Made by a program: the position numbers and the translations under genes. The notes beneath the pieces are model-generated. The model made no database searches. It was not told the origin of the DNA and was given only the letters and a program-made list of their open reading frames with translations. 64,000 nt of DNA from a virus. Within the stretch, counting starts at the first letter, position 1. Every line of letters begins with the position of its first letter. Location of the stretch: positions 2,236 to 66,235 of the IMG/VR virus record IMGVR_UViG_3300009703_000014, one strand, 5' to 3'. This document shows, piece after piece, positions 2,319-59,610 of the stretch.

Positions 2319-5300
2319 ATGGCCACAAATATAAAAAATTTCATTATAGAACAGTTAAAAAGCGCAAACCCTGCTATGGACACTCGCCCTGGAAGTGTTC
2401 TGCGTGACTTACTTGTTAATCCCCTAGCGCTCGTTTTAGAGGGATACCAGCAAGATCATAAAAGAATGTTGGAGAGGCAGACTGTATCAAATATCGGCAG
2501 CTTATCTGAGGATGAGCTCGATGCCGTAGCTTCAAATTTCTTAATATCTAGAAATAAAGGGACTAAATCTACAGGCTATGTTCGCCTTTACTTCTCTTCT
2601 CCAAAAGCTTTTACTATACCTAAAGGAGCGCGGTTTAAAACTGCGGACGGTATACTATTTGAAACAACTTATGCTTTTACAGTATCCCGATTACAGATGG
2701 AGCAGAATACACTAGATTATCCTAACTATGATACAGGCCAAGTGCCTGTGCAATCTGTTCTTGAGGGTGCAAATACAAACATCCCTGCTAATAGTTCTTT
2801 TACCTCAACAGGGAGTTTGCCCTCCTCTCCTATAAAAATAAATAATACCGGTGCTTTCTACGGCGGGATTGAGAAAGAAACAAACGATAAGTTATATAAT
2901 AGGTTAGTAGATGCAGTAAATAATAAATCTTTAGCAGCCCCTACTGCCATTAAAAGCGGGATTAAGGACTTAATTTCAAGTGTGGTTGATGTGGACGTAA
3001 TAGGAGCCGGGCACCCTTTAATGGTTAGGGATTTAACAAATTTAGCGGAAACTGTGGCTAATTATAAATCACACGATTTTACCTATACTTACTCTGGGCT
3101 ACATAGCGGTGATTATGATAAAAAACATATGGCCCTAACTGGCCACTTTATTGACATAGATCCTACTGCCGATGTATCTTACCCAGAGGTTTCAGGGTGA
3201 AGTAAGGAGTTTTCTAATGACATGTATCAGGGGTTATATAATAAAACAGACCTGAGTTACGCAGAAGATTCGTCTAAAATTATTGTGCGGGAGTACTTTG
3301 AGGATTTACTGGATAATGAAGCCCCCCAGCAAGACCTGGCGTACTTAGCTACAAGCGGTGGGTGACAGTTTCATGACGGAGTTAATGGGAATAACCAGAT
3401 GTTCTACTTAGATGAGATTTCAGTATCTAATAATAAATTGCGGCTTGGAAAAACCCTGGATCCAACGAGTGTGGACGCCACCTTACAAATACCTTTAGCC
3501 ATGCTGTCAGGTATATATGATTTAGCAGGATCAGCTATCCAAGGAACTACGGAGGAGGCGATTAACCAGCTAGAGGATTTAATACAACCCAGCAACTTTA
3601 ATAATACGAGTCCAATCTTCCACAAACAAATTGACCAACATCTTGGAGTTAAACTTCAATGCGAAATATCTACAACTGATGGAACTGAAAACGGGGAAAT
3701 GTGTTATATAACGTTTTTAAGAAACTCTGAAAAATATTTGCCTCATGATGGGTATGGGTTGGGTTGGAGAAAGCAGCCGTCTTTCCTAATTAGGATAAAT
3801 AACAATACACATACTTCAGAGGATATTGCCCAATTTGTTGAGGAGTATGGAGTGACGGAGGAAGTAGCTTTAGGGTTGGTAGGGCAACTTTCTAATAGCG
3901 TAAATAAAAAATATTGGAAGTATAATATATACTTGGTAGATAATGACATTTTACAAGAAGAGGTTTGAATAGGACACGACATGCTTTGGGATCAAACTAG
4001 CGGACGTAACCAGTTTTTGCAAGCAGCTAAAACTTGAATAGAGCCTAACGAAACCTATAATGTTAAAATGAAATTATTTCCGCAGCTAGCATTCCAATGC
4101 TGGATTTGGAATAATGGGGTAACTTTTGATGATACCACACATCAGGTCTTAGACCGAGGCCAAACCTACCCTCCATATGTTCCAGTTTCTGGTGATGTTA
4201 AAACATACACAAGTGGATTAGAAAGTCTCGATGCAAATAGAAGTCATTTTGGTATAGCCGTAGCGCAGACTAGAAACTATATATGATCTTTTGATGATTT
4301 AGTTATTAATTCCTTTGTTGAAACCTTTCCCATGCATTTATTTAGATTTAAAGTGGACAGTACATATTTTAATCCAGGGAAGGACGCCACTTTTAGCTAT
4401 CATGGTGTAGGCTATGATCCTTTAGAGTATGCTATCGATAATAACACGGGCAATAGTAAGGTTAAGGTTGGAGTATATAACGAGGCTATGGGTGCTTGGC
4501 AAGACTTAGGATCGCATGAGTCTACGATCGATAGTGATCGCGCTACACAAAAAATTCAAAAGACTATTAGTCCTTTAGGTAATTATTTAGATTCTGAGGG
4601 GTTTGTTAACTTTGCTGCTACTCCTGCAAATTCTGGGCCAGGCTTTGAAGATAATGTGGAACACTCTTTACGTACCTACCATTGTGAAATAAATAATACA
4701 GCTATGGGAGGCATACATAGGGGCAATGCCGTAGATATCTATGTGCACGACCCTCAAAACACAGCCGTTGGAAGTGCCGTAATGACAATGGATAGCAGTG
4801 TTTTAAATGTATGGACTATGCCAGGCGTGTCAAGTTATATACAAGAAATATTGGAAGTAAGAGAATTTACATCCCAACTTTCTTTAGATAAGTCTACTTG
4901 GTCTCTGTCTTACTTAAGCGATGGAAATACTTACGGAGCGATGTCTCAGCCACAAATCACTTTTGATTTAGATAACATGTCGGGCACTATTATTGAAGTA
5001 GTTTATAGACATCTCACTTCTGGAACCTCTATTGCATCTTACTTAAGTAACCCTGATACTCGATACCCAGCAGCAGACCAAATGGTTAAAGTAATGCCCC
5101 CAGCTCGAATTAAAATTAATGGTTTAAAGTACGCAGGCGGTATAGATGAAGTAAATATGCGACAAGCTATAGCTACTTATTTTAATACTTTAGAAGATAC
5201 CTCTTTTGATAAGTCTGATCTAGTAAATCTTTTGTATGCTAATGGGGCTTCTTTTGTAGATTTAGATATGCTTATTTTTATATATCAGTACAATACAGAA

Positions 5301-5411
5301 GGAGTTCAGCAAATTATACCAATGACTGCACAGACTTACAAGATACCAATAACTACAATAGCAAGGTTTTTTTGTAGTGAGGGAGACTTACTAGGAGTAG
5401 AGCGTGTTTAA
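2319..5411 (+). CDS. Baseplate J-like wedge protein (1030 aa, 5 TGA=Trp)
   Basis: N-terminus DTRPGSVLRDLLVNP...LDAVASNF.ISRNKG.KSTGYV...IPKGARFKTADG is BpJ-like. ORF pieces 2319, 3399, 4068 and 4332 share one frame separated only by TGA. Confidence 0.85.
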
Positions 5412-26711: not shown

Positions 26712-26997
26712 TGTGGCGCAGGAATGGGCAGATGACTCTACTATTGTATTTACAAAGGTAGAGTTTGATGCTCTTTTAGTAAAAATGCAGGACTGTGTGT
26801 CTACAAAATACTATTGGGAATCCCTGTCTCTACAGCAAGACTCTTTAATAAATTTGCAAGACTCCCTTATAGCTCAGTATGAATATAAGGATAACTTAGT
26901 GGCACCTTTTTATAAACAAAAGTGGTTCCATAATTTAATGTTTACTTTAACAGGAATGGTAATAAAAGACAAAATAGAGGAAGCAATTAATGACTAG
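26638..26997 (+). CDS. Exported/membrane protein, possible lysis accessory (119 aa)
   Basis: Signal-like N-terminus and hydrophobic C-terminal segment; overlaps the previous gene. Confidence 0.5.
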   Translation: MKKKLKEWFLKKRLLFSLICLVSFNVAQEWADDSTIVFTKVEFDALLVKMQDCVSTKYYWESLSLQQDSLINLQDSLIAQYEYKDNLVAPFYKQKWFHNLMFTLTGMVIKDKIEEAIND

Positions 26998-27256
26998 ATT
27001 TTCTGTAAATATTGACCCAATATCCAATACTACAAATCTTTCTGTGCAGGTAAATGATCATAAATTAAAAAAAACACATATACTGGATAAGGCGGCTAGT
27101 TCTTTAACTTCTGCAAAAGCATATGCAGACCAGTTTATAATAGGGGTGAGGCGTCAGATGGGTGACGAGCAGTCTTCAAAACTGTCCCCCTCCGTTTCCA
27201 AACCGGAGTGCGTGGGTTCGATTCCTACCACCCCTGCAAACAAGGTAAATATATAA
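26990..27256 (+). CDS. Hypothetical protein (88 aa); 3' third overlaps the tRNA(UCA)
   Basis: ORF track; GAGG RBS; its TAA overlaps the endolysin ATG. Confidence 0.5.
   Translation: MTRFSVNIDPISNTTNLSVQVNDHKLKKTHILDKAASSLTSAKAYADQFIIGVRRQMGDEQSSKLSPSVSKPECVGSIPTTPANKVNI
27142..27236 (+). tRNA. tRNA-Trp(UCA), opal-decoding, with atypical 26-nt variable region
   Basis: Acceptor AGGGGTG/CACCCCT plus G73 (A1-U72, G73, as in bacterial tRNA-Trp); D stem CGTC/GACG; anticodon arm GCAGT-CT[TCA]AA-ACTGT; T arm GTGGG-TTCGATT-CCTAC. Confidence 0.88.
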
Positions 27257-27858
27257 TGATAAAAATATTAAAAATTATAATGGATTTAATACGGGTTTTT
27301 TTTAAAGGGAAGCCTCTTGTATCTCATACCCCCCTTAAGATACAAGATATTTCTAAAGAGCTTTCTTGACACCCAACACGTACTTGAAGTAAGCGCGCCT
27401 TATCAAGTATTAAAAAGATTGTAGTACATCAAAGCCTTACTTCGTATAAAAACTCTTCGCTTTCAGCTATAAATAGCTACCACATTAAGCCCGGAAAGCA
27501 AAACCATATAAGCCCTAATGGGGCTCCTCATATTTGCTATCACTTTGGAATAGACGGTGACGGCAACACATTTCAATTAAATAATTTAAGTAGTACAGTG
27601 TGGCATTGTAAGGGACAAAATACAGCCGGCATAGGTATCTTAATATTGGGGGACTTTGACGGCCCCTCTTACACTGGGAAAGACGTAGAGCCTACAGAAG
27701 CCCAACTTAAAAGCCTTGGAGCCCTTATTAATAATTTGCTTTCAAGGGAAAATTTAGCTATATCTAAACAAGACACTTACGGGCATGCTGATTTTGGTAA
27801 GGACAATTGTCCAGGTACTGTCGTAAGCAACTTTATAGACAAATTTAAAAACACTTAG
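27256..27858 (+). CDS. Endolysin, N-acetylmuramoyl-L-alanine amidase (Amidase_2/T7-lysozyme type) (200 aa, 2 TGA=Trp)
   Basis: IVVHQS...YHFGIDGDG...WHCKGQN..GIGILILGDF...GHADFGKDNCPG zinc-amidase motifs; TGA at 27367 and 27385. Confidence 0.88.
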
Positions 27859-27869
27859 AGGATAATAAA

Positions 27870-28928
27870 ATGAATAAAATAGCATCTATGAATCTTGATG
27901 TAGTAGACTTTATCTTAAATGATGTAGAAAAACTGGCATCCGTAGTAAATGGTTTAACAGACAGCACAAAAACAGCACATATTCCCAGCTTTGAAGAGCA
28001 GCAGGATATGCCAGACAGAAATTTTGCTTTAATCTTATTAAGCAATCAGGCAGCCGACTTACATAAATTTGCTATGAACTCGGCTGATTTAGTAGAACTT
28101 AACTTAGCTTTCTTGTCTAATAATGTAGAGTCTCTTCCAGACGAAGTTATTAAGATTGCTGGGGCTAATTTAACTAAAGCCGCAAACGATTATAATGTGA
28201 GTATACCAGCAAACTTAGAAGAATTTTCTTCTAATGTATATGTCGATAACAGGCTTTTAACTACAGACATTAACGAGCTAAATTATGTAGTTAAGTGTGC
28301 GCAAGAGGGTGACGTAAATTTTGCTTGGGAAGGTGAGAAAAAGTATCCTTTAACCGATGCATCCACTGTTAAAACTGCGTCCGCTTACTTTGCGAAACAC
28401 CATCAAGCGATGGATATGGATAAAAAATTAGAATTTGTATTAAATACAGAACGTGCTGCTAAAAACTTTGGGGTAGATATAGACAATACTGCTATAGATA
28501 AATATGCTAGCTTGGATAGAAGCAGGTTTAACCCCATACTTCATGACCATATTAAAGTAAGGCAGTCTTATATTAAAGATGACGAAGATATAGCTATCTA
28601 CGACGACCTATATAATAAAATCGACGCCGCATCGCCTACTAAGGTAGCACAAGCTTTGAATATCATAGATAAGGAATTTGATTTGGAGCGTATGTACGGA
28701 AAGGGGATAGAGGATCCTTTAATGGCCTGTTTAGGATCTGTTAAAAGAGCTGGATTAAATATTGAAGGATCTATGATAACGCAAGATGATTTAAATGGCC
28801 TCGATAGCGGAGACTTAACAGTTATAGTTGGAAATGACGCGGTTAAAGCGCTTAAAGGGGATGAAGGGGTGCATGTATTAAATTCATTACCAACTCCTGT
28901 TAAACGTGAGGTTTTAGAACTTTTATAA
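27870..28928 (+). CDS. Hypothetical protein, possibly virion-internal (352 aa)
   Basis: ORF track; GAGG RBS; several KxAS motifs. Confidence 0.7.
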   Translation: MNKIASMNLDVVDFILNDVEKLASVVNGLTDSTKTAHIPSFEEQQDMPDRNFALILLSNQAADLHKFAMNSADLVELNLAFLSNNVESLPDEVIKIAGANLTKAANDYNVSIPANLEEFSSNVYVDNRLLTTDINELNYVVKCAQEGDVNFAWEGEKKYPLTDASTVKTASAYFAKHHQAMDMDKKLEFVLNTERAAKNFGVDIDNTAIDKYASLDRSRFNPILHDHIKVRQSYIKDDEDIAIYDDLYNKIDAASPTKVAQALNIIDKEFDLERMYGKGIEDPLMACLGSVKRAGLNIEGSMITQDDLNGLDSGDLTVIVGNDAVKALKGDEGVHVLNSLPTPVKREVLELL

Positions 28929-29473: not shown

Positions 29474-30460
29474 ATGAAAGGTTTAGATTGTGGTACAGGT
29501 AATTTTGTATGTGCGTCAGAGAAGGGAATTAATCTACAAAGGAACTCTTTTTTGACAATTGATAAAAGCACAACAACCACAAAGCAATTAAAATTATTGA
29601 GGGTTCCTTATGTAGAATTAGGGGATCAATTACACATAGTAGGTAAAAAGGCATTTGAGTATGCTCAAGTGTTTGGCAATGCAGAGCTTAAAAGACCTAT
29701 GTCTAAAGGGCTTTTAAATCCCACAGAGCAACACGCATTTCCTGTACTTAAAGTAATTATGCAAGAGTTGTTAGGCACTCCTAGTCAAGAAAATGAAGGG
29801 GTTGTTTATTGTGTCCCTGGGAAGCCTATAGACCAAGAAAGGGAAGTAGAATACCACCAAGACATCCTAAAAGATATTATTGAAAGTCTAGGTTTTAAAG
29901 CTAGAGCAATTAATGAAGCAGTCTCATTAGGTTTAGCGGGGTTAGCCGATGACGGGTTAACAGGGATTACGATTTCTATGGGAGCCGGCATGTGTAATAT
30001 TGCTATTATGTATGCGGGTATGTCTGCCTTACAGTTTAGTGTTGCCAAAGGCGGGGACTGGATTGATGAGAATGTAAGTAGGGATTGTGGTATATCTACC
30101 GCAAAAGCACAATACATCAAAGAAAGTGGAGATTATACCATAGACCCGGCATCACCTGTAGGTAGGTCTAGAGAACAGCAGGCTGTAAAAACTTATTATG
30201 AAGTACTGATTAGATACTTAATGGCTAATATAGCTAAACAGTTTGAATCAGAAGATATGCCTAATTTTCCAAACGAAGTGCCTATTGTTATAGGGGGCGG
30301 AACTTCTATGGTAAACGGGTTTATTGAGGTATTTAAAGAGCAATTTCAACAAAAACAATTTCCTCTAGAAATAAGTGATATACGACACGTAGAGGAGCCC
30401 TTAACGGCGGTATCTCGAGGATGTTTAGTGGATGCCCAACTTGAGGAGGAGGAGGGCTAA
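29474..30460 (+). CDS. Actin-like ATPase (ParM/MreB/FtsA superfamily) (328 aa)
   Basis: Phosphate-1 GLDCGTGN, connect AINEAV, phosphate-2 ISMGAGMCN and adenosine IGGGTS motifs. Confidence 0.85.
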   Translation: MKGLDCGTGNFVCASEKGINLQRNSFLTIDKSTTTTKQLKLLRVPYVELGDQLHIVGKKAFEYAQVFGNAELKRPMSKGLLNPTEQHAFPVLKVIMQELLGTPSQENEGVVYCVPGKPIDQEREVEYHQDILKDIIESLGFKARAINEAVSLGLAGLADDGLTGITISMGAGMCNIAIMYAGMSALQFSVAKGGDWIDENVSRDCGISTAKAQYIKESGDYTIDPASPVGRSREQQAVKTYYEVLIRYLMANIAKQFESEDMPNFPNEVPIVIGGGTSMVNGFIEVFKEQFQQKQFPLEISDIRHVEEPLTAVSRGCLVDAQLEEEEG

Positions 30461-37927: not shown

Positions 37928-38425
37928 CTATGGTTGGTTTAATTTAATTTCTGTGTTGCAGTACATAAACAAAAATCGTTTACATTCGTTTAACAGAACT
38001 TTAATTTGTTTTTTTAGTCCACCAGGCGAGGTGGTTCCTAATTTTCGTGTTATTGTAACTTCTTTTTTTGTCCATGAGTATTCAAAATTTATCTTTTTTG
38101 ATATCATTTGCTTCTCAAAAGAGGCGGGGAAAGTTTGTTTTAGTTGTAGGTTTGGCCTGCCGTTAGACATGTCAAGCAACAACTGCATAAACCCCGTTTT
38201 TAATGTATCTTTTTTATTTAGTAAGAGAGTCAGATTATTTACGTCACTAAATTCAGTGAATATAAATAGAGCTCCTTCTGTCTCAACCCAGCCGAAAGGC
38301 AGGTAGCAAGACGTTTCTTTTAGCCTATCAAACTTTTTACTTAGCAGAACTAAGTTTTTAGCGTCATTTTGCCAAGCTGTGTCAAAAACTGGTTTCCTCT
38401 TACTGGGTGTAAGCTTTTTATCCAT
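37928..38425 (-). CDS. Hypothetical protein overlapping the RT 3' end (up to 165 aa)
   Basis: ORF track; 76-nt overlap with RT, start uncertain. Confidence 0.6.
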   Translation of the reverse strand: MDKKLTPSKRKPVFDTAWQNDAKNLVLLSKKFDRLKETSCYLPFGWVETEGALFIFTEFSDVNNLTLLLNKKDTLKTGFMQLLLDMSNGRPNLQLKQTFPASFEKQMISKKINFEYSWTKKEVTITRKLGTTSPGGLKKQIKVLLNECKRFLFMYCNTEIKLNQP

Positions 38426-39252
38426 TCGCAGTATCCTCTCATTTGCTGATATTCTTCTAGAGAAATTGTTTTTTGATCTCTATTGATGTTGTGTAATTTT
38501 GCTCTGAAGTTACGCCACTTCCATTTTGGAACGCTTAACTTCTTATTTACAACCACCCCTGTAATGCTCATGCGTTGGTTGGGTTTTCGTATCCGCGTCT
38601 TCTTAGGATTTACTTTCAGGTCTGCCATTTCTATAAATTCTGTGATAGGTTTTATATGTGTCCCCATTTTTTCACTTTTATCCGAGTGGCTAAAGGTGAG
38701 GTCATCAGCATATCTCGTGTAGAGAAGCCCATGGATTTCGCTGTATGTGCTTAAATTGTGATCTAGAGCTATACAGTATAAGTTTGCCAATGCCGGTGAT
38801 GTGGGGGATCCTTGTGGAAGCTGTCCCTTATAAGTAACCAATTTTACAAAAACTTTCAAATCCTCTCTTGTAAAAGTAAAAGAGGGCTCTATTTTCTTAT
38901 ACCTATTAAATAGGGAAAACCCCAATTTATAAACGTTTGCCGTTTTAATAGAATTGAAGAAGTTCGATAGGTCCATGCAGAGTAAAGCGTCTCGCCCTAA
39001 GTGCCTTAATGCTCCGTCTGCAACGCCAATGCCCGACACAAAACCTACAGCTGCGTCATGAGCACTGAAGTTATATAAAAAGGAATATAAAATTCTACTT
39101 TGTATCTCCTTTAATTCGTCTAGGGGGGCGTCTAGCCAACGCTTCTTTCCACTTTTTTTGCTGATGGGGTACGATAAGTAGTTTTTCCCTTGGTCGGAAA
39201 TTATGCCCATAGCCTCTTGTTTGCTTGTCTGTATGCATTCATAAAAATCCAT
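38350..39252 (-). CDS. Retron-type reverse transcriptase (300 aa)
   Basis: ISKKSGKKR..AP...LK.IQ, HDAAVGF, GALRH (NAxxH-like region X), DLSNFF, LPQGSPTSP, YTRYADDLTFS, ITGVVVN (VTG-like region Y); AGGAG RBS. Confidence 0.92.
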   Translation of the reverse strand: MDFYECIQTSKQEAMGIISDQGKNYLSYPISKKSGKKRWLDAPLDELKEIQSRILYSFLYNFSAHDAAVGFVSGIGVADGALRHLGRDALLCMDLSNFFNSIKTANVYKLGFSLFNRYKKIEPSFTFTREDLKVFVKLVTYKGQLPQGSPTSPALANLYCIALDHNLSTYSEIHGLLYTRYADDLTFSHSDKSEKMGTHIKPITEFIEMADLKVNPKKTRIRKPNQRMSITGVVVNKKLSVPKWKWRNFRAKLHNINRDQKTISLEEYQQMRGYCEWIKSLHPVRGNQFLTQLGKMTLKT

Positions 39253-39554: not shown

Positions 39555-41090
39555 TTACACTACTGAAAAAATAATTTCAGCTACTTTGTCAGCGGAAGAC
39601 TGTCTTATATCGTCTAACTTGCTAATCTTGTCCGAAAACTCGTTAATGGCGCAATCAGTATTATAATCCACATCAACCAGAACAGAGTGTACTATTACAT
39701 TTTTTTGCTTCTTCCAGGAAATGAAATCATATAACCAACTTTTCCTGACTGCGGAGTTTCCATCCGTAATAAACACAATGTCCGCTTTTTTAAATTCTTT
39801 GTGGTCGTTTATTGTGTCTTTGGCGAGATCTAGCGGTGGCTCGAATTGGGTACCGCCGCTTGCGAAAAACTCCGCCATGTCTAAAACCTCTGATACATTA
39901 TAGGCATCAGATTTTAGAAAGTTGTTGGTGTGAAGCATGTGCTTGGGTGAGGCATCGAAGTGAATAACGTGCAAGCTTCTGTTTTCAGCTCTAGCTATTT
40001 CTAGCAAACCCATGGCTACTCCTTTAGCCCATATTTCAGGCTCTCCGTGCATACTTCCACTACTATCAATACACACTACAATGGGACCTTTTGCCTTTTT
40101 TTCCTTACCAGCATACTTATATTGTAATAAGTTACTTTCCACATAATTCTTTTTGAACGATGTTTTTAGCAGAGGGTGCGACAGCTTTGACATCTCAGTC
40201 GGAATCAGCTTTCCTATGTCCTTCCCAAGTTCTATATCATAAATGCTATTTACACCTTTTGATATTTTGTTCTTGAAAGTACTAAGGGCTAAAGACTTAT
40301 AGCGGCCCATTAAAGCAGCTATTTCCTTTAACTTTTTGGAAGTATTCAGGGTTTCCAATAATTTTAGTTTTTCTTGATACCCGCTTTTTTGATAGTTAGG
40401 GTCCTGCTCTAGCCCCCAGTTAGCTATCATCTCTGAAGTTTCCTGGGTTTTGGAAATTGCCTTATCTAGCATCCTGTTTATCTGTCGTTTTTCTTTCTTC
40501 TCTACGACATTTAAAGTGTTTAGAGTATCCTCGAGGTGTTTTTGAGCGTCCTCTAAACTTATCTGTTCTTGGGATTTTCCTTCCCCAGTCCCGTTGTTCT
40601 CCTTTTCTGCATCACCTCCTGCAGCTTGTTCCTTGTCGGCAGCATTCTCTGCGGCACTCTCTAGGTTTTTAAGCGCTTCATCGAACTTGTCCTTAAGGTC
40701 TTTAACCAAATCCTTAACCTGTTCCCCAACTACTTCGGTACCCACGGCAGCATTTAGCTTGTCAAGCCTAGTCATTCCTCTTAGTTCCTTATATTGAGGG
40801 CTGTCCATAACGGCATCCATCACCTGGCTATTTAAACTATATTCGTAAGCTATATCTTTGTCGTCGAATTTTTCGGGACTATACTTATATAAGCTATCGA
40901 AAACGTCTTGGTGGAGATGCTCGAACTGTGGGTACATATCTGTGCCGGACATGTAAGTGGCGGCTATTTTTGGATTTTTTAGTAGAAGCTCTTTGAAAGC
41001 GTGTATGTCGAAATTGTCATACTTCACGCTATACTTCTCGGATTTTATTCGTTTTAGAATACTTTTTGCTTTTTCTGACAATGTTTTCAT
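39555..41090 (-). CDS. vWA-domain protein, ViaA/CoxE-like (511 aa)
   Basis: MIDAS IDSSGSM, GGTQFEPPL, IVFITDG. Confidence 0.88.
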   Translation of the reverse strand: MKTLSEKAKSILKRIKSEKYSVKYDNFDIHAFKELLLKNPKIAATYMSGTDMYPQFEHLHQDVFDSLYKYSPEKFDDKDIAYEYSLNSQVMDAVMDSPQYKELRGMTRLDKLNAAVGTEVVGEQVKDLVKDLKDKFDEALKNLESAAENAADKEQAAGGDAEKENNGTGEGKSQEQISLEDAQKHLEDTLNTLNVVEKKEKRQINRMLDKAISKTQETSEMIANWGLEQDPNYQKSGYQEKLKLLETLNTSKKLKEIAALMGRYKSLALSTFKNKISKGVNSIYDIELGKDIGKLIPTEMSKLSHPLLKTSFKKNYVESNLLQYKYAGKEKKAKGPIVVCIDSSGSMHGEPEIWAKGVAMGLLEIARAENRSLHVIHFDASPKHMLHTNNFLKSDAYNVSEVLDMAEFFASGGTQFEPPLDLAKDTINDHKEFKKADIVFITDGNSAVRKSWLYDFISWKKQKNVIVHSVLVDVDYNTDCAINEFSDKISKLDDIRQSSADKVAEIIFSVV

Positions 41091-41099
41091 ATTACTCCT

Positions 41100-42233
41100 T
41101 TAAGTAAAGCTCACGCCGCAAGCTTCGTTATATACTTCTGTAAGATACTGGTCTATTTTTGATTCTAAAGCTCTTACTTCTTTAGTATCTCGACCCTTTT
41201 CTTTTATGCTCAAATAATAAGAATTCATCTTTTTCTTCGCATCTTTTAATTTTACAGCTACCTCTACACCTTTTTTAAGGCGGTTAGCATCGTTATTTTC
41301 TATACTCATTACAGAGTCATATAAATCTTGAGCGTCGTCGAATAATTCCATAATTTTATTCTTTTCAGGATTTATCAGATCTAGTATAGCTGAGTAAACA
41401 TACTTAGCTTCGTCAGGATCTGACCACATTACGTGCTGTAAAATGTCTAAGTCACCTTCTAAGACGGTATCTCTTTTTTGGTAGTAAGCTTCTGCTTTCA
41501 ATAAGTTGATACAGCCCTTATAAGATCTATCTGAAACTTTGATACCTTTGTCATTTAGACTAGTCTTTAGGTTAGCAATTATTTCTATTATGTCTTTAGA
41601 AACTGTCACTTTTTTCACAGCTTTTCTTATAGAGAGGATGTCCTCTAAGCTGATCAATGGAGCATTTTTTATGGGCTCACTTTGCATCATTTTAACGAAG
41701 TTAGAAGACTCTTTGATTGGTTTAACCATGTACTTTAAGGTAAATCTGTCTAACATCGCTTCCAAGCCATCCCCTTCTTCGGGTAACTCATTAGAAGCCC
41801 CCACGAGGGTTAATAAGGGTATATTCACTGGTTTGCCGTCGTTAAAGAAAATCCGTTCATTCAGAATGGTTAGCAGGAAGTTTAAGACCCCTGAATTGCC
41901 TTTCCAAGTTTCGTCAATAAAGGCTATATCGGCCTCCGGTAACTTACCTGTGGTATTTCTTAAAAACTTGTCTGACTCTAAACCCTTTAGAGAGTATGGG
42001 CCTGCCAATTCCTCTGGCGTTGAGTATGCCGTTAAAAGCCAGCTGAAGTAGTTGCTTTTATCTATCAATTTTGCCCAGCTATTCACTAAGAGGGACTTTC
42101 CTACCCCTGGAGGGCCTAAGTATAATATATTGTTACCTGAAATAACTCCGAGAGTTAATCCATGTATCTCATCTGCCCTCTCTACGAAGTAGCTATTGAG
42201 TGTTTTTTCTATTTTTTGAAGTTTATCATGCAT
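41100..42233 (-). CDS. MoxR/RavA-type AAA+ ATPase (377 aa)
   Basis: GPPGVGKS Walker A, FIDETWK Walker B, GASNELP, LDRF; adjacent to vWA partner. Confidence 0.88.
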   Translation of the reverse strand: MHDKLQKIEKTLNSYFVERADEIHGLTLGVISGNNILYLGPPGVGKSLLVNSWAKLIDKSNYFSWLLTAYSTPEELAGPYSLKGLESDKFLRNTTGKLPEADIAFIDETWKGNSGVLNFLLTILNERIFFNDGKPVNIPLLTLVGASNELPEEGDGLEAMLDRFTLKYMVKPIKESSNFVKMMQSEPIKNAPLISLEDILSIRKAVKKVTVSKDIIEIIANLKTSLNDKGIKVSDRSYKGCINLLKAEAYYQKRDTVLEGDLDILQHVMWSDPDEAKYVYSAILDLINPEKNKIMELFDDAQDLYDSVMSIENNDANRLKKGVEVAVKLKDAKKKMNSYYLSIKEKGRDTKEVRALESKIDQYLTEVYNEACGVSFT

Positions 42234-42947: not shown

Positions 42948-45900
42948 ATGGAAAATCTATTAAACCACGAATTACAAAATAAGCGTATTCAAAAATCTAT
43001 TATAAAGTCTATAAACAGTTATTTTCCTGTAGAGGCCGGCAACAAGCGCTTAGACATCAGTGACTTATCAATAAAAGATTCTTTAGACAGTAATGACTTT
43101 CCAGCACAAAAAGAAAGTAAATTAAGCAGACAAAGCTGGCAAGTTCCGATTTACGCTTCCCTTACTTTAACAGATCTTTTAACACAAAAAGTTATTAGTA
43201 AAAAAACGAATATAAAGATAGGGGACGTCCCTAAGCTAACAAACAGATTTACTACCATTGTTGATGGAAATGAATATCAAACAGTAAATCAGCTTAGACG
43301 TAAACCTGGGGTTTATTCAAGAATTAAAAAGAATGGGGAACTTGAAAGCGAGTTTAATCTCGCTAAGGGTGTGAACTTTAAAATGCAGCTTGATCCAGTT
43401 AAAGAAGTTTTTTATATTGTGCTGGCCAACAGACGTTATAGACTGTGAACTTTATTACAAACACTAGGAATGTCTGATGCGGATATGGAGCGTTTTTGGG
43501 GAAGCGAACTTTTGCTTAAAAATAAAAAAGGCGCCCTAAACACAGAAGAATCAGAGATGACTGCTATTTATAGTAAGCTTTATAGAAAGCCTGCTAAAGA
43601 TTATGATTCTGTGGTGAAGGGGCTACGTAATTACTTTACAGAAGAAGGTACTAAATTAGATGAAGGCACCACTAAACTTACCCTGGGAAAGTCCTTTAAA
43701 GCTGTTACAGGGGAAACCTTAATTGCAGCCTCAAATAAGTTACTAAATATTCATAAAGGCAAGGAGGCTGCAGACGATCGGGATAGTTTAGTATATAAGA
43801 ATATGCATACGGTGGATGATCTTGTGATTGACCATTTTCATAGAAATGCCGAAGTCATAGTAGAAAAAATTAAAAGATCTATGGGGCTTAGAGACACAGT
43901 TCGCGCTGTAATTCCTGCAAGCACCTTTACTAAGCCTGTAAAAGATTTCTTTACTTCAGGTGACCTGTCAGCAACACCTGCCCAAACGAATCCAGCAGTT
44001 ATTGTGTCTGACTGGAGAAAAACGTCTCCTATGGGAACAGGGGGAATACAAAGCAGGCACGCCATTACTATGGAAACTCGAGACGTGCAGCCTACGCATC
44101 TAAGCTTTTTAGACCCACTAGCTACTCCTGAATCAGGCAGAGTAGGCGTAACGGTAGGGTTATCTTCTGAGGTACAAAAACAAAATGGGGAAATGAAAAC
44201 TCCTGTTGTTAATCCAAAAACTAACAAGATGGTATTTGTTACTCCTTTAGAGTTTTTTGAAGCAAGGGTAGGATTCCCTGACCAGTATTCTTATAAAAAT
44301 TCTAAGGTGGTACCTAGATATAAAATAGTGAATGCCCAATATAAAGGGAAGCTGGTTAGGATAAAAGCCTCCCAAGTCGATTACTATATAAGATCACCCA
44401 AGTCTATGTTTTCTTTTGCATCAAATATGGTGCCTTTTATGCAGACAGTTCAGGGAAACAGGGCATCTACGGCCGGTCGAATGATAGGACAAGCCTTGGG
44501 CTTGGATAATAAGGAAGCCCCCCTCGTGCAAACTTTAAGAGACTCCGGCGCCGGTACAGGAAAAGAAACTTATGAAAAACTAATAGGTAATTTTTTAAAC
44601 CCAATACTCGGGAAAGATTCTAAGGGAAAGACGCAAAAAGGGATAGTTGAAAAGATTACAAAAGACTATATTTATATTAAAACGTCTGACGGGCGGCAAG
44701 TAAAGCGGGGCCTATATAACAATTTTCCCCTAAATCAGGATGGCTTTTTACACTCCAACCCTTTAGTTAAAGTAGGTGACTCTATAAAGTCAGACACAAT
44801 ATTAGCAGACAATAATTATGCAGACAAGGACACCTTAGCTCTGGGTAAAAACCTTTCAGTGGCCTACATGGCTTACAAAGGTTTTAATTTTGAGGACGGT
44901 GCCGTTATAACAGAAAGTGCTGCTAAAAAGCTATCGCATACAATGTTACACAGACTGAATGTTTTTTATAGCCCAAAAACATCTTTATTTGACGTAAGTA
45001 AATTTCAAGCATGGTTTCCGGATGACATAACAAATAGTAGTATTTTGGATGCCACCGGCGTTGTTAAAAAAGGGGCCACCGTCAATCCGGGCGACACTGT
45101 CGTTGCTTTTTTAATAGAAAAAGAAATGGATGACCGAGAAAAAGCTTTAAAAAAATTAGATAAGTTTACATTTACCCCTTACACAAAAAAAACGTTGGTA
45201 TGGGAAGAAGACGAGCCAGGAATTGTTAGCGAGGTTAGGAGGGTTGGCAGAAATATTGACGTATACATCAAAAGTACCCATCCTTTTACAGAAGGTGATA
45301 AGCTATCAGGGCGGTATGGCAATAAATACATCGTAACTAAAATTATTGACGATGCGGATTCGCCTCATAGAGAAAACGGGGAGCCTGTTGAAATACTATT
45401 AAATCCTCATGGTGTTCCCGCACGAATGAATGTGGGACAAATTTTAGAAACAGCTGCGGCTAAAATAGCTAAAAAAACAGGGAAACCTTACATTGTTAAT
45501 AACTTTGAAAACCCTGACGCAGACATGGTCACTAATATGAGCAAGGAGTTAAAGAAGCATGGGTTAAAAACTACTGAGATACTGACCGACGGAAAAACGG
45601 GTCAATCTTTTGAAACCCCTATATATACAGGTGGGCAGTACTTTATGAAACTGCGCCATATTGTTAAGAAAAAGGAAGGAAAACACGCGTTCGGTACTTA
45701 TGATATTGATGAGCAGCCTACAGGAAAGGGGTCCCAAAGAATTGGAGTATTAGACACATACTCTTACCTAGCACACGGTGCAAAAGCAAACTTAAGAGAA
45801 ATGACTTCTATAAAAAGTAGGCAGAATGAGGAGTATTGACGTAATTTACAGTTAGGGTTACCTCCTGTAAAACCTCAACGAAACTTTATATTTAATAAAA

Positions 45901-48900
45901 TTACTTCTTATCTTAATGCTGCGGGGATTAATACTGTAAAGAAGGGAAATGAGTTAAGAGTGATGCCTCTAACAGATAAGGACGTAAGGAATATGTCTAA
46001 TGGGGACTTAAAAGATCCGGGAGCCATGCTTATTGGAAAAAACCTAGGTTCTAGAAAAGGCGGTCTTTTTGATCCAGAAATTACTGGAGGCATTAAAGGG
46101 ACCCAATGATCGCATATCAAGCTCACTGCACGTATACCTAATCCTATGTATGAAGACGCAATTATGAAAGCTTTAGAGCTTACACAAAATAAGTTTGAAG
46201 CTATTATGAAAGGTAAAGAAACTCTTGGTAATAAAACAGGCCCAGCCGCAATTGTAAACGCTTTAAGCAATTTAAATGTTAAGGAAGAAATTAAAAAGGC
46301 TAAAAAAGCATTAAAGAGTGCTCCAGAAACAACCGTTAATAAGTTAAATAAGCGATTACGTAATTTGGTGGCATTAAAAGATTTAAAAATAGGTGCTAAG
46401 GAGGCATACACAATGCAGAATGTTCCTGTACTCCCTCCTTCTTTTAGACCTGTGTACCCCCTTCCTAGCGGAGATCTCATGGTCAGTGATCTAAACAAAC
46501 ATTATAGGGATATTGGGTTAATTAATTCCTCTTTAAAAAAGGTGTGGTCTTCATTAGAGGATGAAGACAGGCTATCCTCTACGAACGACTTATACACTTC
46601 CGTTAAAGCAATGCAAGGCTTTATAGATCCAGTAACCTATGGTAAGGAAAAATATCAGGGGATATTAAAAGAGCTGGGCAAAACTAAAACTGGCCTACTT
46701 TTTGAAAAGGGGTGGTCTAAACGACAAGACTTAAGCGCCAGAAGCACTATTACGGTTGCACCTAGTTTAGGGCTGGATGAGGTAGGACTCCCTAAAAAAA
46801 TGGCTTTCACAGTTTATAAGCCTTTTATTGTCAGGAGTTTAAAGGAAAGCGGCTTTAAAGCTAGAGAGGCTTTAAAACATGTAGAGGACCAAACAGACAT
46901 TGCTTTGAATGCTCTACAAGGTGTATTGAAAAAAAGACCTTTGCTATTAAATAGAGCTCCGTCTTTGCATAAGCACTCTGTGCAAGCTTTTGACCCTACT
47001 CTTAGTTCTGGAAAATCAATACAGCTTAATCCCCTAATTGTGGGTGGATTTAATGCAGACTTTGATGGTGATACAATGTCAATTAATGTGCCAGTAGGTA
47101 AAGAGGCTGTAGAAGAGGCGAAAGGAATGCTGCCTAGTAAAATACTTTTTAAAGCTGGCGATAGCTCTCTAATACCACAGATAGCTCATGAATATTTATT
47201 TGGTCTTTTTATGCTATCTGAAATTAATGGAAAGAGTGACTTGAGTTTTAACTCAATAAGCTCTGCTAAGAAAGCAGGCATTCCATGGACTACAGAATTT
47301 AAATTAAAAGGAGATACAGTAACTTTAGGGCAATATTATATTAACGCTGAACTACCTGCGGCTTTAAAAGACTATACCCGAAAATTAGATAAGAAGGCTG
47401 TAAAGAAGCTTTTAACAGTTTTAGCTAAAGACCACCCTTCTTATTTTACAGAGGTTATTAATAGCTGAAAAACTTTAGGAGCACACTATGCCTATTTAAG
47501 AGGCAACACTATCTCATTAGATGACTTTGCTATAGATAGGTCTTATAAAAATAGAATTTTAAATAAAGTGATGCCTATTATTGATAAGATGAAGGGAAGG
47601 TCAAAAATCGAAGCTTTAAATAAAATGACAGTCTCTGTACAAAAAGCACAGGATAAAGCCATGAAGGGTAGAAATAATAATATATATGATATGCTTAGAT
47701 CGGGGTCTTTTACAAAACCTGATTCTGTGAGGCAAATTTTGTCCTTTCCAGGCGTAGTCTCGGACGTAAAAGGGCAGCCTATTGAGCACCCCATACTTAA
47801 ATCATATGGGGAAGGACTAGACACTGCTTCATACTTTAATTCAATGTACGGTGTGCGTAAAGGCCAGGTAGATAGGTCTGTTAATACTCAAGAGTCTGGT
47901 GCCTTAAATAAAGCCCTTCTAAATGTTACACGACGTTTGTTGGTTACAGAGGAAGACTGTGGTACTTTAAAAGGCTTAATATTCGGGGTTACTAATAAGA
48001 ATATATATGACCGTTTTTTATTAAAAACGGTGGCTGGTGTAGGGAGACGAAATGAAATTGTTGGGGGAGAGCTTATTATAAGGGCTAAAAAGAAGAAAAT
48101 CAAAGAATTGGAAGTAAGAAGCCCTTTGACCTGTGAAGCAGATCAAGGTGTATGTCAAAGCTGTTATGGGCTGCTGCCTAACGGAAGTCCAGCACCAGTC
48201 GGAACAAATGTAGGGGTTTTAGAATCCCAAGCCATTACTGAAAGAGCTACGCAACTTACAATGCAAACTTTCCACTCAGGCGGAACTGCCTTAGGAGGTG
48301 GTGGTATTGTTGCAGGGTTTCCTCGGTTAGAGCAGATTTTAAAAGTGCCTGAAAAGCTCGGAGGAAAAGCTACTTTATCGGATGTAAAGGGTAAAGTTAA
48401 GAAAATCAAGAAGAATTTGACAGGAGGATATGAGGTATTTATAGAGGGGTATGGTGCTAAGAATGATAAGAGTTTTGTAGTTCCCGCTGGACGCCAAATT
48501 ATACTTAAAGTAGGTGATTCGGTAGATAGGGGAGATCCTATATCAAGCGGCGTTATTAAACCGCAAGAGCTCGGAGCACTAAAAACACATTTAGATGCTC
48601 AAAAGTATATGGTGCGTGAAGCTTCCTCTGTATACTCCGGAGACTTTTATGATAAAACGTTTGAAACTGTTATAAGAGGCATTAGTGATAATGCCGAGGT
48701 TACAGACGCTCCCGAGGGCTCAAATGTACTACGGGGAGATAAAATGCCTGCTAGCTCTTTGAGAAAATTAAATAAAGAAAGGCGAAAGCTAAAATTACCT
48801 AAAATTAAATTTAAAGAGTATTTTAAATCTATAGATACTTTAAATACAGATGCTAGAGATTGGCTGACTAGAATTACAAGTAACAGGGTGAAGGCCGGGC

Positions 48901-49022
48901 TCATTACAGCAGCCTCTCAAGGACAATACTCTAACTTTAAGGGAAAAGACCCTATTCCCGCATACTTATATGGGGACGACTTTGGTAAAAAATCCGACCC
49001 GTCTAAGGGACACTTTTATTAA
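42948..49022 (+). CDS. Multisubunit-type RNA polymerase, fused beta-beta' polypeptide (2024 aa, 4 TGA=Trp)
   Basis: beta motifs (TPESGRVG, GNRASTAGRM, GYNFED-like GFNFEDG, GDKLSGRYGNK, NPHGVPARMNVGQ) and beta' motifs (GGLFDPEITGG, NRAPSLH, catalytic NADFDGD, TQLTMQTFH) in one frame; TGA at 43446, 45837, 46107, 47466. Confidence 0.9.
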
Positions 49023-56760: not shown

Positions 56761-56764
56761 ATTG

Positions 56765-56852
56765 CTGGAGCAGAAGGAATCGAACCCCCATGGACTTGTT
56801 AAATCCGCTACCTAAACAGGGTAGTGCGTCTGCCAAATTCCGCCATACTCCA
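56765..56852 (-). tRNA. Atypical tRNA-Asn(GUU) with long variable arm
   Basis: Acceptor TGGAGTA/TGCTCCA plus G73; Leu-like D arm GCGGAATTTGGCAGACGC; anticodon arm CTACC-CT[GTT]TA-GGTAG; variable stem GGATTT/AAGTCC; T loop TTCGATT. Confidence 0.7.
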
Positions 56853-57898: not shown

Positions 57899-58801
57899 TT
57901 AAGGTAATAATCCTTGTAATTTCATAGCTCTTACCATTCTAGTTACGCCAATACCTCCACCAAATCTATCAAACATATTTAAGGATAGATACTCTTCCAA
58001 TTCATCTTCAACTCTTTTTCTACCAAAGTGATTGAACAATAAATTGGCATATTCACCATCTGAAATTGTGTGGAACTGATGCCGCATTTCTGAAACATTT
58101 GAACTTCTTTCAGCACTTCCAATTGTTTCCATTCCGTGCATTATAACGTCTACCTTATGAAACAGGTCAGGGTCAACGCTGCTTTGTTTCATATTCCAGA
58201 ACGGATGTGTTCTTTGTGGAAAATGCGTTAAGAAGGTACAGTCTGTATAGTCACTACAAAGTTTTTCTTCCTCATCTACATCTAGTTCAGAAACAGCATA
58301 CTTAGTAGCCGCATCGTTGTATTTAATATTTGAAAAATCGAGACTTTCCCCGAAACCTAGGTGGGTTAGTAACTCCTCTTCAAGCTTGATCATATCAGTC
58401 ATATCTCCATGAGATTCAAACTCAAACATGGGGAAGATCTTGTCATGTCTACCCGGGATTGGGTTAGGCTCATTTCTATATGAGGTTGTTATGCAAAACA
58501 CTCCTTCTACTTCTGGGTTTTCTAAAAGCTCTCGTTCTAGCCACATTTGCCCTGTCTGTGGCAGTGGCCAATTCGTTCCGCCAAAAATATATTGTGAAAT
58601 TGTTGCTGGGTCCTCGCAAGCTGCTAGTATTGACTGTCGTGATTGGGCTGGAACTTCGACAAATCCTTTTGCTTCTTGAAAAAAGAAGCGCATCTTTTTT
58701 ACTACTTCATTATATTCATACATATTTTTCAAAGTATTTATTTTCTCCTTGTGTACCCATAAGGGGTAGTCATTGTTATAGTGCTGCCCTCGTAAGGACA
58801 A
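57899..58801 (-). CDS. Truncated AsnRS/AspRS paralogue (archaeal-type asparagine synthetase-like) (up to 300 aa)
   Basis: Class II motif 2 SYRNEPNPIPGRHDKIFPMFEFE and motif 3 RFGGGIGVTRM; no anticodon-binding domain; start may be later. Confidence 0.75.
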   Translation of the reverse strand: MSLRGQHYNNDYPLWVHKEKINTLKNMYEYNEVVKKMRFFFQEAKGFVEVPAQSRQSILAACEDPATISQYIFGGTNWPLPQTGQMWLERELLENPEVEGVFCITTSYRNEPNPIPGRHDKIFPMFEFESHGDMTDMIKLEEELLTHLGFGESLDFSNIKYNDAATKYAVSELDVDEEEKLCSDYTDCTFLTHFPQRTHPFWNMKQSSVDPDLFHKVDVIMHGMETIGSAERSSNVSEMRHQFHTISDGEYANLLFNHFGRKRVEDELEEYLSLNMFDRFGGGIGVTRMVRAMKLQGLLP

Positions 58802-59121
58802 GCTATAGTCGGTATTGTATCAGTTGCAACTTTTGTTTTACTTCTTAGTTGCTGTGGCTTTTTACCGTCAAGCCGTATATATATTCTAATTTTACTGTCA
58901 TCTTCTATATCCGGTTATTGTTTCTAGTACCCATGTTAATGCCCTTAAAAGGGATATGCCTGCGTACAAGCATCAGAGGTATAAAGTTGATATTAAGCGG
59001 GCCAATAAGCGTTTAATCAATGCTATTGGTGTGTTCTTCTTCTGCATATATTTTACTAAAAAATTTTTCATTTAAAAAAAGTGGTTTATTGTTTGTAAGT
59101 TTTCTGTTAAATACAGACCAG

Positions 59122-59194
59122 TGACCCGAGAGCGGCTCGAACGCTCGACCCACTGCTTAAAAGGCCGTTGCTCTACCTGCTGAGCTATCGGGTC
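59122..59194 (-). tRNA. tRNA-Lys(UUU)
   Basis: GACCCGA/TCGGGTC acceptor, GCTC/GAGC D stem, CT[TTT]AA loop, TTCGAGC T loop. Confidence 0.9.
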
Positions 59195-59198
59195 AATA

Positions 59199-59272
59199 TG
59201 GTAGCGGGGCCGGGAATTGCACCCGGGACTCAGGCTTATGAGGCCTACGTTTTACTACTTCACTACCCCGCA
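59199..59272 (-). tRNA. tRNA-Met(CAU) (initiator-like 1:72 mismatch; Ile2 not excluded)
   Basis: TGCGGGG/CCCCGCT acceptor plus encoded ACCA; TAGGC-CT[CAT]AA-GCCTG anticodon arm. Confidence 0.85.
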
Positions 59273-59276
59273 TTTA

Positions 59277-59610
59277 TTGTGGAGACGGCGAGAGTCGAAC
59301 TCGCGTCTTGAAAAACTCTATATAAAAGTCATTCACAAGCTTATCCAGTTGCTCTTCTTCTGGCAAGTCAGCTTAACTGTTCTTATTTAATGTGTCGTAG
59401 TTATAGCAACCAACATCTGATTTACTGTTTTCTCAGGGTCTTTCCGATATGATGTCGCTACCTCTTATCGGAGTAGGAGGGCGACAGGCTGCATATTACT
59501 ACGCTGCCATTGCGTAACTGTTGCCAATTGAAATTGACGTTTGTTTTAACGTGTATACTCACGGCTTGCACTTCTATACGATATTTCCCAATCGAAACCA
59601 AAACGTCCCC
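59277..59610 (-). ncRNA. ssrA: tmRNA, tag peptide (A)GNSYAMAA
   Basis: 5' GGGGACG pairs with 3' CGTCTCC (G3.U70); T arm GCGAG-TTCGACT-CTCGC; tag ORF GGC AAC AGT TAC GCA ATG GCA GCG TAG TAA at 59525-59496. Confidence 0.9.

Follow-up and report, generated by a model that had tools for sequence, protein, structure and literature searches.

The window analysed here is a stretch of 64,000 nucleotides of the IMG/VR virus record IMGVR_UViG_3300009703_000014 (positions 2,236 to 66,235 of that record), and its subject is a tRNA gene with the anticodon UCA that displays a second stem-loop with the triplet CCA in its variable region. The record comes from a subsurface metagenome sample, is 73 kb long and is about 35% complete according to CheckV; a search of sequencing runs for the DNA of the window returned two DNA runs, both subsurface metagenomes, and no RNA run. 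At 27142-27237 (+ strand) ARAGORN reports one tRNA with anticodon tca, labelled SeC, and this tRNA (27142-27236 up to its discriminator) is the only UCA tRNA in the virus record. It is followed directly by the gene of an Amidase_2 endolysin, which belongs to a set of + strand genes that appear only when TGA is read as sense: the open reading frames (ORFs) then fuse, giving full-length genes for structural proteins, RNA polymerase and lysis, among them a baseplate wedge gene, tail-fibre genes, the portal, a fused beta-beta' RNA polymerase and the endolysin itself. The gene blocks of the minus strand are intact already under the standard code. About 70 in-frame TGA codons were found in the window.

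The tRNA gene comprises 95 nucleotides up to the discriminator G27236; the CCA tail is not encoded, the following bases being CAA. The minimum-energy fold given by RNAfold is a five-helix cloverleaf with a 7/5 branch (Table 1), in which the acceptor, D, anticodon and T helices of an elongator tRNA are all present, as are an anticodon loop of 7 nt, UUCGAUU as T loop and GG in the D loop. Direct reading of the acceptor gives A1-U72, G2-C71, G3-C70, G4-C69, G5-C68 and G73, that is, the full bacterial Trp identity set, and the D arm is preceded by an unusual 3-nt connector (A8 G9 G10). The nucleotide A27168 alone joins the D stem to the anticodon arm, as canonical position 26 does. The C34 C35 A36 element of Trp identity is absent from the anticodon position, where UCA is found, and CCA is confined to the extra arm. 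Both the sequence and RNAfold thus bear out the Trp-type acceptor, the UCA anticodon and the CCA-bearing extra arm described in an earlier note on this DNA. The same note had taken the loop of the extra hairpin for a canonical Trp anticodon loop; its stem and its CCA stand, but the loop of the window copy has 9 nt, UUUCCAAAC, in which a core UUCCAAA (27196-27202, with CCA at 27198-27200) is closed by the mismatch U27195.C27203. The fold of the window sequence alone is not statistically special (z = -1.14), and chance is excluded here by the comparative evidence, not by the fold energy of a single sequence. The whole gene is also crossed by an 88-codon ORF of code 11 (26990-27256, + strand), the final 38 or so codons of which are probably a chance extension; an annotation pipeline could hide the tRNA under this spurious coding sequence.

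Table 1. Parts of the tRNA gene and the TGA-containing genes used in the analysis (window coordinates).
Feature	Position	Strand	Description	Source
tRNA(UCA) gene, to discriminator G	27142..27236	+	95 nt	ARAGORN, RNAfold, direct sequence reading
Acceptor stem	27142-27148 with 27229-27235	+	7 bp, AGGGGUG with CACCCCU	RNAfold, sequence
D arm	27152..27167	+	5-bp stem, 27152-27156 with 27163-27167; loop GAUGGG	RNAfold
Anticodon arm	27169..27185	+	5-bp stem; loop CUUCAAA; anticodon UCA 27176-27178	ARAGORN, RNAfold
Variable region	27186..27211	+	26 nt: spacer CCCC, extra arm, spacer UGC	sequence, RNAfold
Extra arm	27190..27208	+	27190-27194 with 27204-27208; stem CUCCG/CGGAG; loop 27195-27203	sequence, RNAfold
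T arm	27212..27228	+	GUGGG, UUCGAUU, CCUAC; G51.U63 pair	sequence, alignment
Endolysin (Amidase_2) gene	27256..27858	+	starts 20 nt past the tRNA; TGA at codons 38 and 44 (27367, 27385)	
Baseplate wedge gene	2319..5411	+	5 in-frame TGA	
Fused beta-beta' RNA polymerase gene	42948..49022	+	2024 aa; 4 in-frame TGA	

In order to establish which amino acid is inserted at TGA, the residues aligned to each Trp codon of the window genes were collected from homologues, 120 for the polymerase and 52 for the baseplate protein; the TGA columns are covered by 103-120 and 47-52 homologues, respectively. Trp is the majority residue at TGA 964 (102/120) and TGA 1054 (96/120) of the polymerase and at all five positions of the baseplate protein, namely TGA 294 (42/47), 349 (33/47), 550 (36/52), 573 (51/51) and 656 (51/51). 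The two other polymerase columns contain Tyr in 61 and Trp in 37 homologues (TGA 167), and Trp in 46, Phe in 36 and Leu in 20 (TGA 1507). Trp is consequently the first or second commonest residue in 9/9 TGA columns and the majority in 7/9, all of them being Trp or aromatic columns, and the TGG columns of both sets of homologues show the same pattern. Ser, Cys and Gly are absent from all 9 TGA columns tested. A baseplate homologue confirmed to translate by table 11, and hence a standard-code relative, has Trp at 4/5 of the TGA sites. Trp is also found at 4/4 sites in a polymerase homologue for which the same longest contig is listed. Columns of this composition, with neither Ser nor Cys nor Gly, show that the phage reads TGA as Trp in its late genes. 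The endolysin is a direct client of the suppressor; the TGA-recoded late genes need the tRNA. More than 100 full-length homologues of the fused beta-beta' polymerase, some of them with inteins, occur in large phage contigs. The window further encodes a reverse transcriptase (38350-39252, - strand), a MoxR-type AAA+ / VWA pair (39555-42233, - strand) and a Volactin-family actin-like protein (265 bits; 29474-30460, + strand).

The extra arm of the window tRNA belongs to a family. A first pattern had three fixed elements (the loop with the UCA anticodon, the T loop, a 3' end CCCCUG) separated by 5-35 free bases. It found 30 loci in IMG/VR, of which 23 are long-armed (~93-100 nt), 5 short-armed and 2 without a tRNA; all 23 long-armed tRNAs, one of which ARAGORN missed, have a variable-region hairpin with U-CCA-A in the loop. 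A second scan left the acceptor unconstrained and gave 54 distinct long-armed UCA tRNAs: 34 have G73 and a 7/5 body combined with a loop N-U-CCA-A-N, a further 19 are Sec-like and one is an oddity (L098). The first pattern applied to JGI metagenomes yielded 101 distinct Trp-type UCA tRNAs, 55 short and 46 long, with a UCCA loop in 46/46 of the long ones. The pooled set comprises 73 distinct two-armed bodies, in which 53 different 5-nt stem pairs occur; gut, rumen and subsurface are among the environments sampled. The variable region was unconstrained in the searches, and within the 73-member set U33, C34, C35 and A36 define membership; A37 is found in 71 members and A38 in 64, position 32 being free, and on the acceptor G73 is present in 73/73 and A1-U72 in 66/73. 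Like the other members, the window tRNA carries a stop anticodon on the arm joined to the D stem and a variable-region hairpin of the form N-U-(cognate sense anticodon)-A-N. The sole long-armed Trp-type UCA tRNA without a CCA loop is L098, from the bacterial genome scan; this region (L098:1466-1525), on a contig of a Desulfobacteraceae metagenome-assembled genome, has a Trp-type acceptor, a UCA anticodon and a variable loop with U-CUA-A. A strict anticodon-arm pattern matched only L001, an unrelated Sec-like 8/5 tRNA on a 532-kb contig.

Each of the five base pairs in the extra stem varies on both sides in an alignment of 34 members, and the covariation of the whole structure reaches 0.489 as compared with 0.148 in shuffled alignments, 0/500 shuffles being as high. 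Over the 34 relatives 96-100% pairing is seen in the acceptor, anticodon and T helices, with compensatory changes, and the G51.U63 pair of the T stem, also found in Mollicutes tRNA-Trp, occurs in 33/34. The variable region measures 23-27 nt and consists of a 5' spacer of 4-5 nt, a stem mostly of 5 bp and a 3' spacer of 3-4 nt; the loop is a true 7-nt loop in 25/34 viral and genome relatives, and a mismatch at the position of the U.C closure of the window copy is common to 8 other members. The commonest extra loops are CUCCAAA and GUCCAAA, the former being the exact anticodon loop of ordinary tRNA-Trp(CCA) of the same loci and of Mollicutes. The earlier note had asked whether this loop is conserved and covaries in UCA tRNAs of related phages, and had named free variation of the loop as grounds for giving up its idea; what we find is a loop that stays unchanged over 53 stems, with a covarying stem. 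These comparative data indicate purifying selection on the CCA loop and turnover of the stems around it.

A protein-based search for related loci with the neighbouring protein (27870-28928) found no relatives in viral contigs, and the close relatives of the window were obtained from the scan of metagenome DNA. This subfamily (L373, L381, L425, L465 and L469) has the same A8 and 3-nt connector, 5-bp D stem, acceptor and T arms as the window tRNA, and the D arm of L381 shows a compensatory change from U-A to G-C. The extra stem is wholly different (CUGCUAGU with GCUAGUA) and the loop is kept as GUCCAAA, CUCCAAA or UUCCAAA; in L469 the closing pair is mismatched, as in the window copy. The order of tRNA and endolysin is conserved in L381 (endolysin at L381:3455-3958) and L465 (L465:836-1081), and in L381 it continues with a DUF6582 protein and an actin-like protein. 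Taking TGA, but not TAG, as sense raises the ORF coverage of many two-armed loci by 0.2-0.6. Other structured RNAs lie close to some members. In a 131-kb phage a ROOL RNA (Rfam RF03087, 233 bits; L029:275-798) is found 12 nt downstream of the two-armed tRNA, and a phage tmRNA (Rfam 108 bits; window 59277-59610, - strand) directly adjoins tRNA-Met and tRNA-Lys (59121-59272, - strand), a tmRNA being also near the two-armed tRNA in the related tRNA arrays L016, L017, L019 and L031.

The triplet in the extra arm is specific. A scan for long-armed CUA tRNAs, which have Gln-type U1-A72/G73 acceptors, gave 45 distinct sequences; 33 of these show U-YUG-A, a Gln anticodon, in the extra loop, and most of the remainder have CUG or UUG with another flanking base. 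Examples of this Gln type are L274, L293 and L257 (among L248-L357, viral contigs), with loops C/U-U-CUG/UUG-A-A/G; a stem of 2-5 bp is flanked by a spacer of 1 nt on the 5' side and of 5-7 nt on the 3' side. CCA was found in the extra arm of 0/45 long CUA tRNAs, YUG in 0/54 long UCA tRNAs, and either motif in 0/112 long-armed Ser, Leu and Tyr tRNAs of the same loci. With CCA accompanying UCA and YUG accompanying CUA, the triplet of the extra arm tracks the amino acid given to the reassigned stop. A tRNA-Asn(GUU) of the window (89 nt, 56764-56852, - strand) was considered as a further two-armed case and rejected, the loop of its long arm being UAACA, without GUU; it stands beside a 300-aa class II synthetase core (57899-58801, - strand) which has a weak likeness to AsnRS, AspRS or LysRS and no anticodon-binding domain.

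The distribution of the arm was also compared with that of tryptophanyl-tRNA synthetase (TrpRS). The approximately 100 matches in Mycoplasmatota and candidate phyla (CPR), in which TGA natively means Trp, have short variable loops only, and the few long-armed bacterial matches are in gut and rumen assemblies of Firmicutes and Bacteroidota, several of these stretches being TGA-recoded themselves. The TrpRS family PF00579 was found in 0/32 two-armed phage records, nine of which are at least 90% complete; it was not found in the phage of the window either, to which little weight attaches since the record is about 35% complete. A bona fide trpS (TIGR00233, 317 bits) occurs in a complete 237-kb phage with a short-armed UCA tRNA and in a fragment of the same lineage. 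TrpRS is therefore present in 2/8 short-armed and 0/32 two-armed records, an association that is suggestive at best, because both positives represent one lineage and another complete short-armed phage lacks the gene. In that lineage trpS (L358:1402-2487, G004; G002:C1:232444-233241) lies about 2.5 kb from the tRNA, beside a Lon protease fragment.

As for the origin of the architecture, a comparison of a typical member with GenBank phages by BLAST gave no full-length relative, and the matches cover only the stretch that begins at the extra arm and runs to the 3' end. The matched part is collinear with ordinary tRNA-Trp(CCA), that is, with its anticodon arm, variable loop, T arm and acceptor, and this collinearity from the CCA arm onward identifies the CCA arm as the retained original anticodon arm. 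On the same comparison, the UCA arm was added 5' of it.

Taking the phage code, the Trp-type acceptor and the conservation and specificity of the arm as established, we consider it probable that the gene encodes an opal-suppressor tRNA of a large phage which derives from a bacterial tRNA-Trp(CCA) and reads TGA as Trp in late genes. The original CCA stem-loop would have been kept and displaced to the position of the variable arm, and a second stem-loop with UCA, lying 5' of the CCA arm and one nucleotide from the D stem, would decode. Bacterial tRNA-Trp owes its identity to the nucleotides of the anticodon, to G73 and to the first pairs of the acceptor (PMC9976931). The host TrpRS would require G73, the A1-U72/G-C acceptor stem and a CCA anticodon, and the tRNA would offer these acceptor elements together with CCA on a flexible extra arm. 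Thus, we propose that an unadapted host TrpRS can charge the tRNA efficiently with Trp despite its UCA anticodon; EF-Tu and the ribosome would tolerate the long variable arm, as they do others, and the charged tRNA would put Trp at UGA. The retained CCA arm would in that case probably be an identity element for the host TrpRS while the UCA arm decodes. That the arm serves TrpRS recognition had been put forward in the earlier note in the form of a decoy, and it is the best fit to the comparative data; we infer the binding of TrpRS to the extra arm, its benefit for charging and the geometry from those data. Since the tRNA gene lies 20 nt upstream of an endolysin gene with two early TGA codons, we further propose that the tRNA gates lysis and late-protein synthesis.

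The geometry may be compatible with such a role. The extra arm of the Trp type is sized like an anticodon arm, with mostly a 5-bp stem, a 7-nt loop, U33 and a purine at 37, and its spacers of 4-5 and 3-4 nt are such that it could swing alongside the true anticodon arm. TrpRS and TyrRS bind tRNA from the face bearing the variable arm. Among class I synthetases these two are exceptions, with no approach from the minor-groove side (PMC7373986). Several observations weigh against recognition by the host TrpRS: the extra loop of the window copy is closed by a U.C mismatch; Gln-type stems are short, at 2-5 bp, and the face of the tRNA bound by GlnRS is the opposite one; the anticorrelation with TrpRS comes from a single TrpRS-bearing lineage; and short-armed UCA tRNAs work in Mollicutes and occur, in the complete phage genome G013, in a phage without TrpRS. 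The last case means that the extra arm is not indispensable, and the short Gln-type stems together with the face used by GlnRS mean that one simple docking model may not fit both types. The physical solution may differ between the Trp and Gln types, or an alternative conformer may be involved. One such conformer, to which we assign a rather low likelihood, would be an adaptor that swaps its arms. The segment that begins with the CCA arm and runs to the 3' end has remained a native tRNA-Trp, the 3-4-nt spacer being equal to a normal variable loop; during charging by TrpRS the CCA arm could therefore be stacked below the D stem, a place that the UCA arm would take for EF-Tu and the ribosome. If so, this natural tRNA would have two alternative L-shapes, of which one gives identity and the other decodes.

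Recognition by the host TrpRS has to be weighed against readings in which the arm serves something else. The conservation and covariation prove selection and leave its reader unnamed, the docking on the synthetase is a deduced geometry, and the Trp and Gln arms differ in length; the arm might accordingly be selected for a factor other than TrpRS, such as an enzyme that modifies anticodon loops, a host anticodon nuclease against which it would act as decoy or sponge, a regulatory RNA of the T-box-like kind sensing tRNA-Trp, or some phage factor. We consider this unlikely though worth keeping in mind, because the triplet follows the reassigned amino acid, as identity for a synthetase predicts, and because no such arm is seen where the phage encodes TrpRS or where TrpRS and the code have evolved together. 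We also know of no nuclease or modification enzyme specific for both Trp and Gln anticodons.

A molecule with two decoding heads, whose UCA arm reads UGA and whose CCA arm reads UGG, either of them in the ribosomal anticodon position, would agree with the collinearity of the CCA arm and what follows with native tRNA-Trp (the 3-4-nt spacer as normal variable loop) and with spacers that are both long enough for flexibility. Such a device would be superfluous to judge from the wobble reading of UGG by UCA and the normal tRNA-Trp(CCA) present in many of these phages; moreover, it is the UCA arm that is joined to the D stem in the canonical way, by one nucleotide, and the Gln-type arms are too short for anticodon stems, all of which makes this reading very improbable. 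Excision or cleavage of the extra arm during maturation, giving an ordinary short-armed tRNA-Trp(UCA), is an equally poor prospect: nothing speaks for it directly, beyond the fact that phage tRNAs can bear odd processing elements such as 3'-end theta ribozymes (PMC10879173), a 19-nt hairpin at the variable position is not a known bacterial intron site or type, and a discarded spacer would have no reason for an invariant U-CCA-A.

The arm could, finally, be without present function, a neutral relic left when the anticodon arm was duplicated internally. The duplication proposed in the earlier note holds as history, the keeping of the old CCA arm being supported by the collinearity described above; as a full account it fails, because 53 stems surround an unchanged loop in 73 sequences of varied samples, and in the subfamily of the window all stem positions have been replaced and the loop kept. 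Turnover of the stem around a frozen loop therefore rules out neutrality, and scarcely any credence is left to this account. The least credible reading, a tRNA-Sec or a Ser-charged suppressor recognised by seryl-tRNA synthetase (SerRS) through the long arm and G73, has in its favour the ARAGORN label SeC, tRNA-Sec as the best Rfam family and the presence of the long arm, G73 and G2-C71. What speaks against it, and against the SerRS charging raised earlier, is that among some 70 in-frame TGA codons in the window the 9 tested coincide with Trp or aromatic columns in which neither Ser nor Cys occurs; a further point against tRNA-Sec is the separate group formed by the genuine Sec-like tRNAs of viral contigs (G1, 8/5, 4-5-nt variable loop, no CCA).

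The assignment to tRNA-Sec was also rejected on the molecule itself, whose branch has 7 + 5 = 12 bp and not the 13 bp of an 8/5 branch, A8 facing C87, with which it cannot pair, and on its Rfam score, 42.2 bits against a gathering score of 47, a match seen only with E-value thresholds; at the gathering thresholds of Rfam the tRNA of the window is not reported. The 9 TGA codons tested never fall on Cys columns. The Sec-like UCA tRNAs (L001:8121-8214, L141, L161, L175, L189, L198, L246 and others) are mostly in viral contigs of higher GC content, one of 532 kb; they may represent selC genes of prophages or hosts, or else Sec tRNAs of phages.

The gene belongs to a known class, the phage opal suppressors, and its two-armed structure is apparently new. 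For phages that read TGA as Trp the occurrence of a tRNA(UCA) suppressor has been reported and its architecture has not (10.1101/2021.08.26.457843; PMC7886860). The window shares with the reported cases a phage UCA tRNA, TGA as Trp in late, structural and lysis genes and a location beside a lysis gene, and differs in the conserved second arm showing CCA. The tRNA-Trp(UCA) of Mycoplasmatota and other code-4 bacteria has the same anticodon, A1-U72 / GGGG / G73 acceptor and G51.U63 pair; it differs in a variable loop of 4-5 nt, never an extra arm, and in a TrpRS that co-evolved with the code. The class II tRNAs (Ser, Leu and bacterial Tyr) also have a long helical variable arm which is tolerated by EF-Tu and the ribosome and used by a synthetase. 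In tRNA-Ser it is the size of this arm that matters and not its sequence (PMC9976931), whereas the two-armed tRNAs have an invariant loop copying an anticodon loop, and longer spacers (4-5 and 3-4 nt). With tRNA-Sec (RF01852) and the allo-tRNAs and selC* tRNA-Cys (PMC5389517) the window tRNA has in common UCA, the long arm, G73, a length of about 95 nt and the annotation as SeC; it differs from them in its 7/5 branch, which is not 8/5, 9/4 or 8/4, in the Trp-type acceptor and in TGA codons at Trp positions.

Outside tRNA, a stem-loop with a cognate anticodon can be recognised away from its canonical position, as is proposed here. The E. coli thrS operator is a mimic of an anticodon arm bound by the synthetase. 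Further mimics of this kind are the HIV-1 tRNA-like element that binds LysRS (PMC5113203) and the yeast HisRS mRNA element (PMC6542539). Those elements regulate or recruit, whereas the mimic would here serve the aminoacylation of its own tRNA. The nearest parallel in principle is the two-armed amber tRNA(CUA), in which a stop anticodon decodes and the cognate sense anticodon (YUG) is in the extra arm, with shorter stems, other spacers and another synthetase. No published description of such an extra arm was found in a literature search that was not exhaustive.

Two-armed genes are easily overlooked, as ARAGORN calls them tRNA-Sec and the Rfam defaults report some as ordinary tRNA and miss others. 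Detection of suppressors in TGA-recoded phages has been reported to be low (35%; 10.1101/2021.08.26.457843), and the mislabelling of two-armed tRNAs may contribute to this figure. How host synthetases charge phage suppressor tRNAs has been stated as an open question (10.1101/2021.08.26.457843), to which a conserved arm showing the cognate anticodon is a concrete and testable answer, and a natural blueprint for efficient suppressor tRNAs with synthetases that read the anticodon. Were the arm-swapping conformer real, these phages would have a general route to the reassignment of stop codons without a synthetase of their own, of which the Gln/CUA tRNAs would be a second instance. If the retained CCA arm is indeed read by the host TrpRS, the two-armed tRNAs would represent a new principle of tRNA identity, in which the anticodon element is moved to another arm and identity is uncoupled from decoding.

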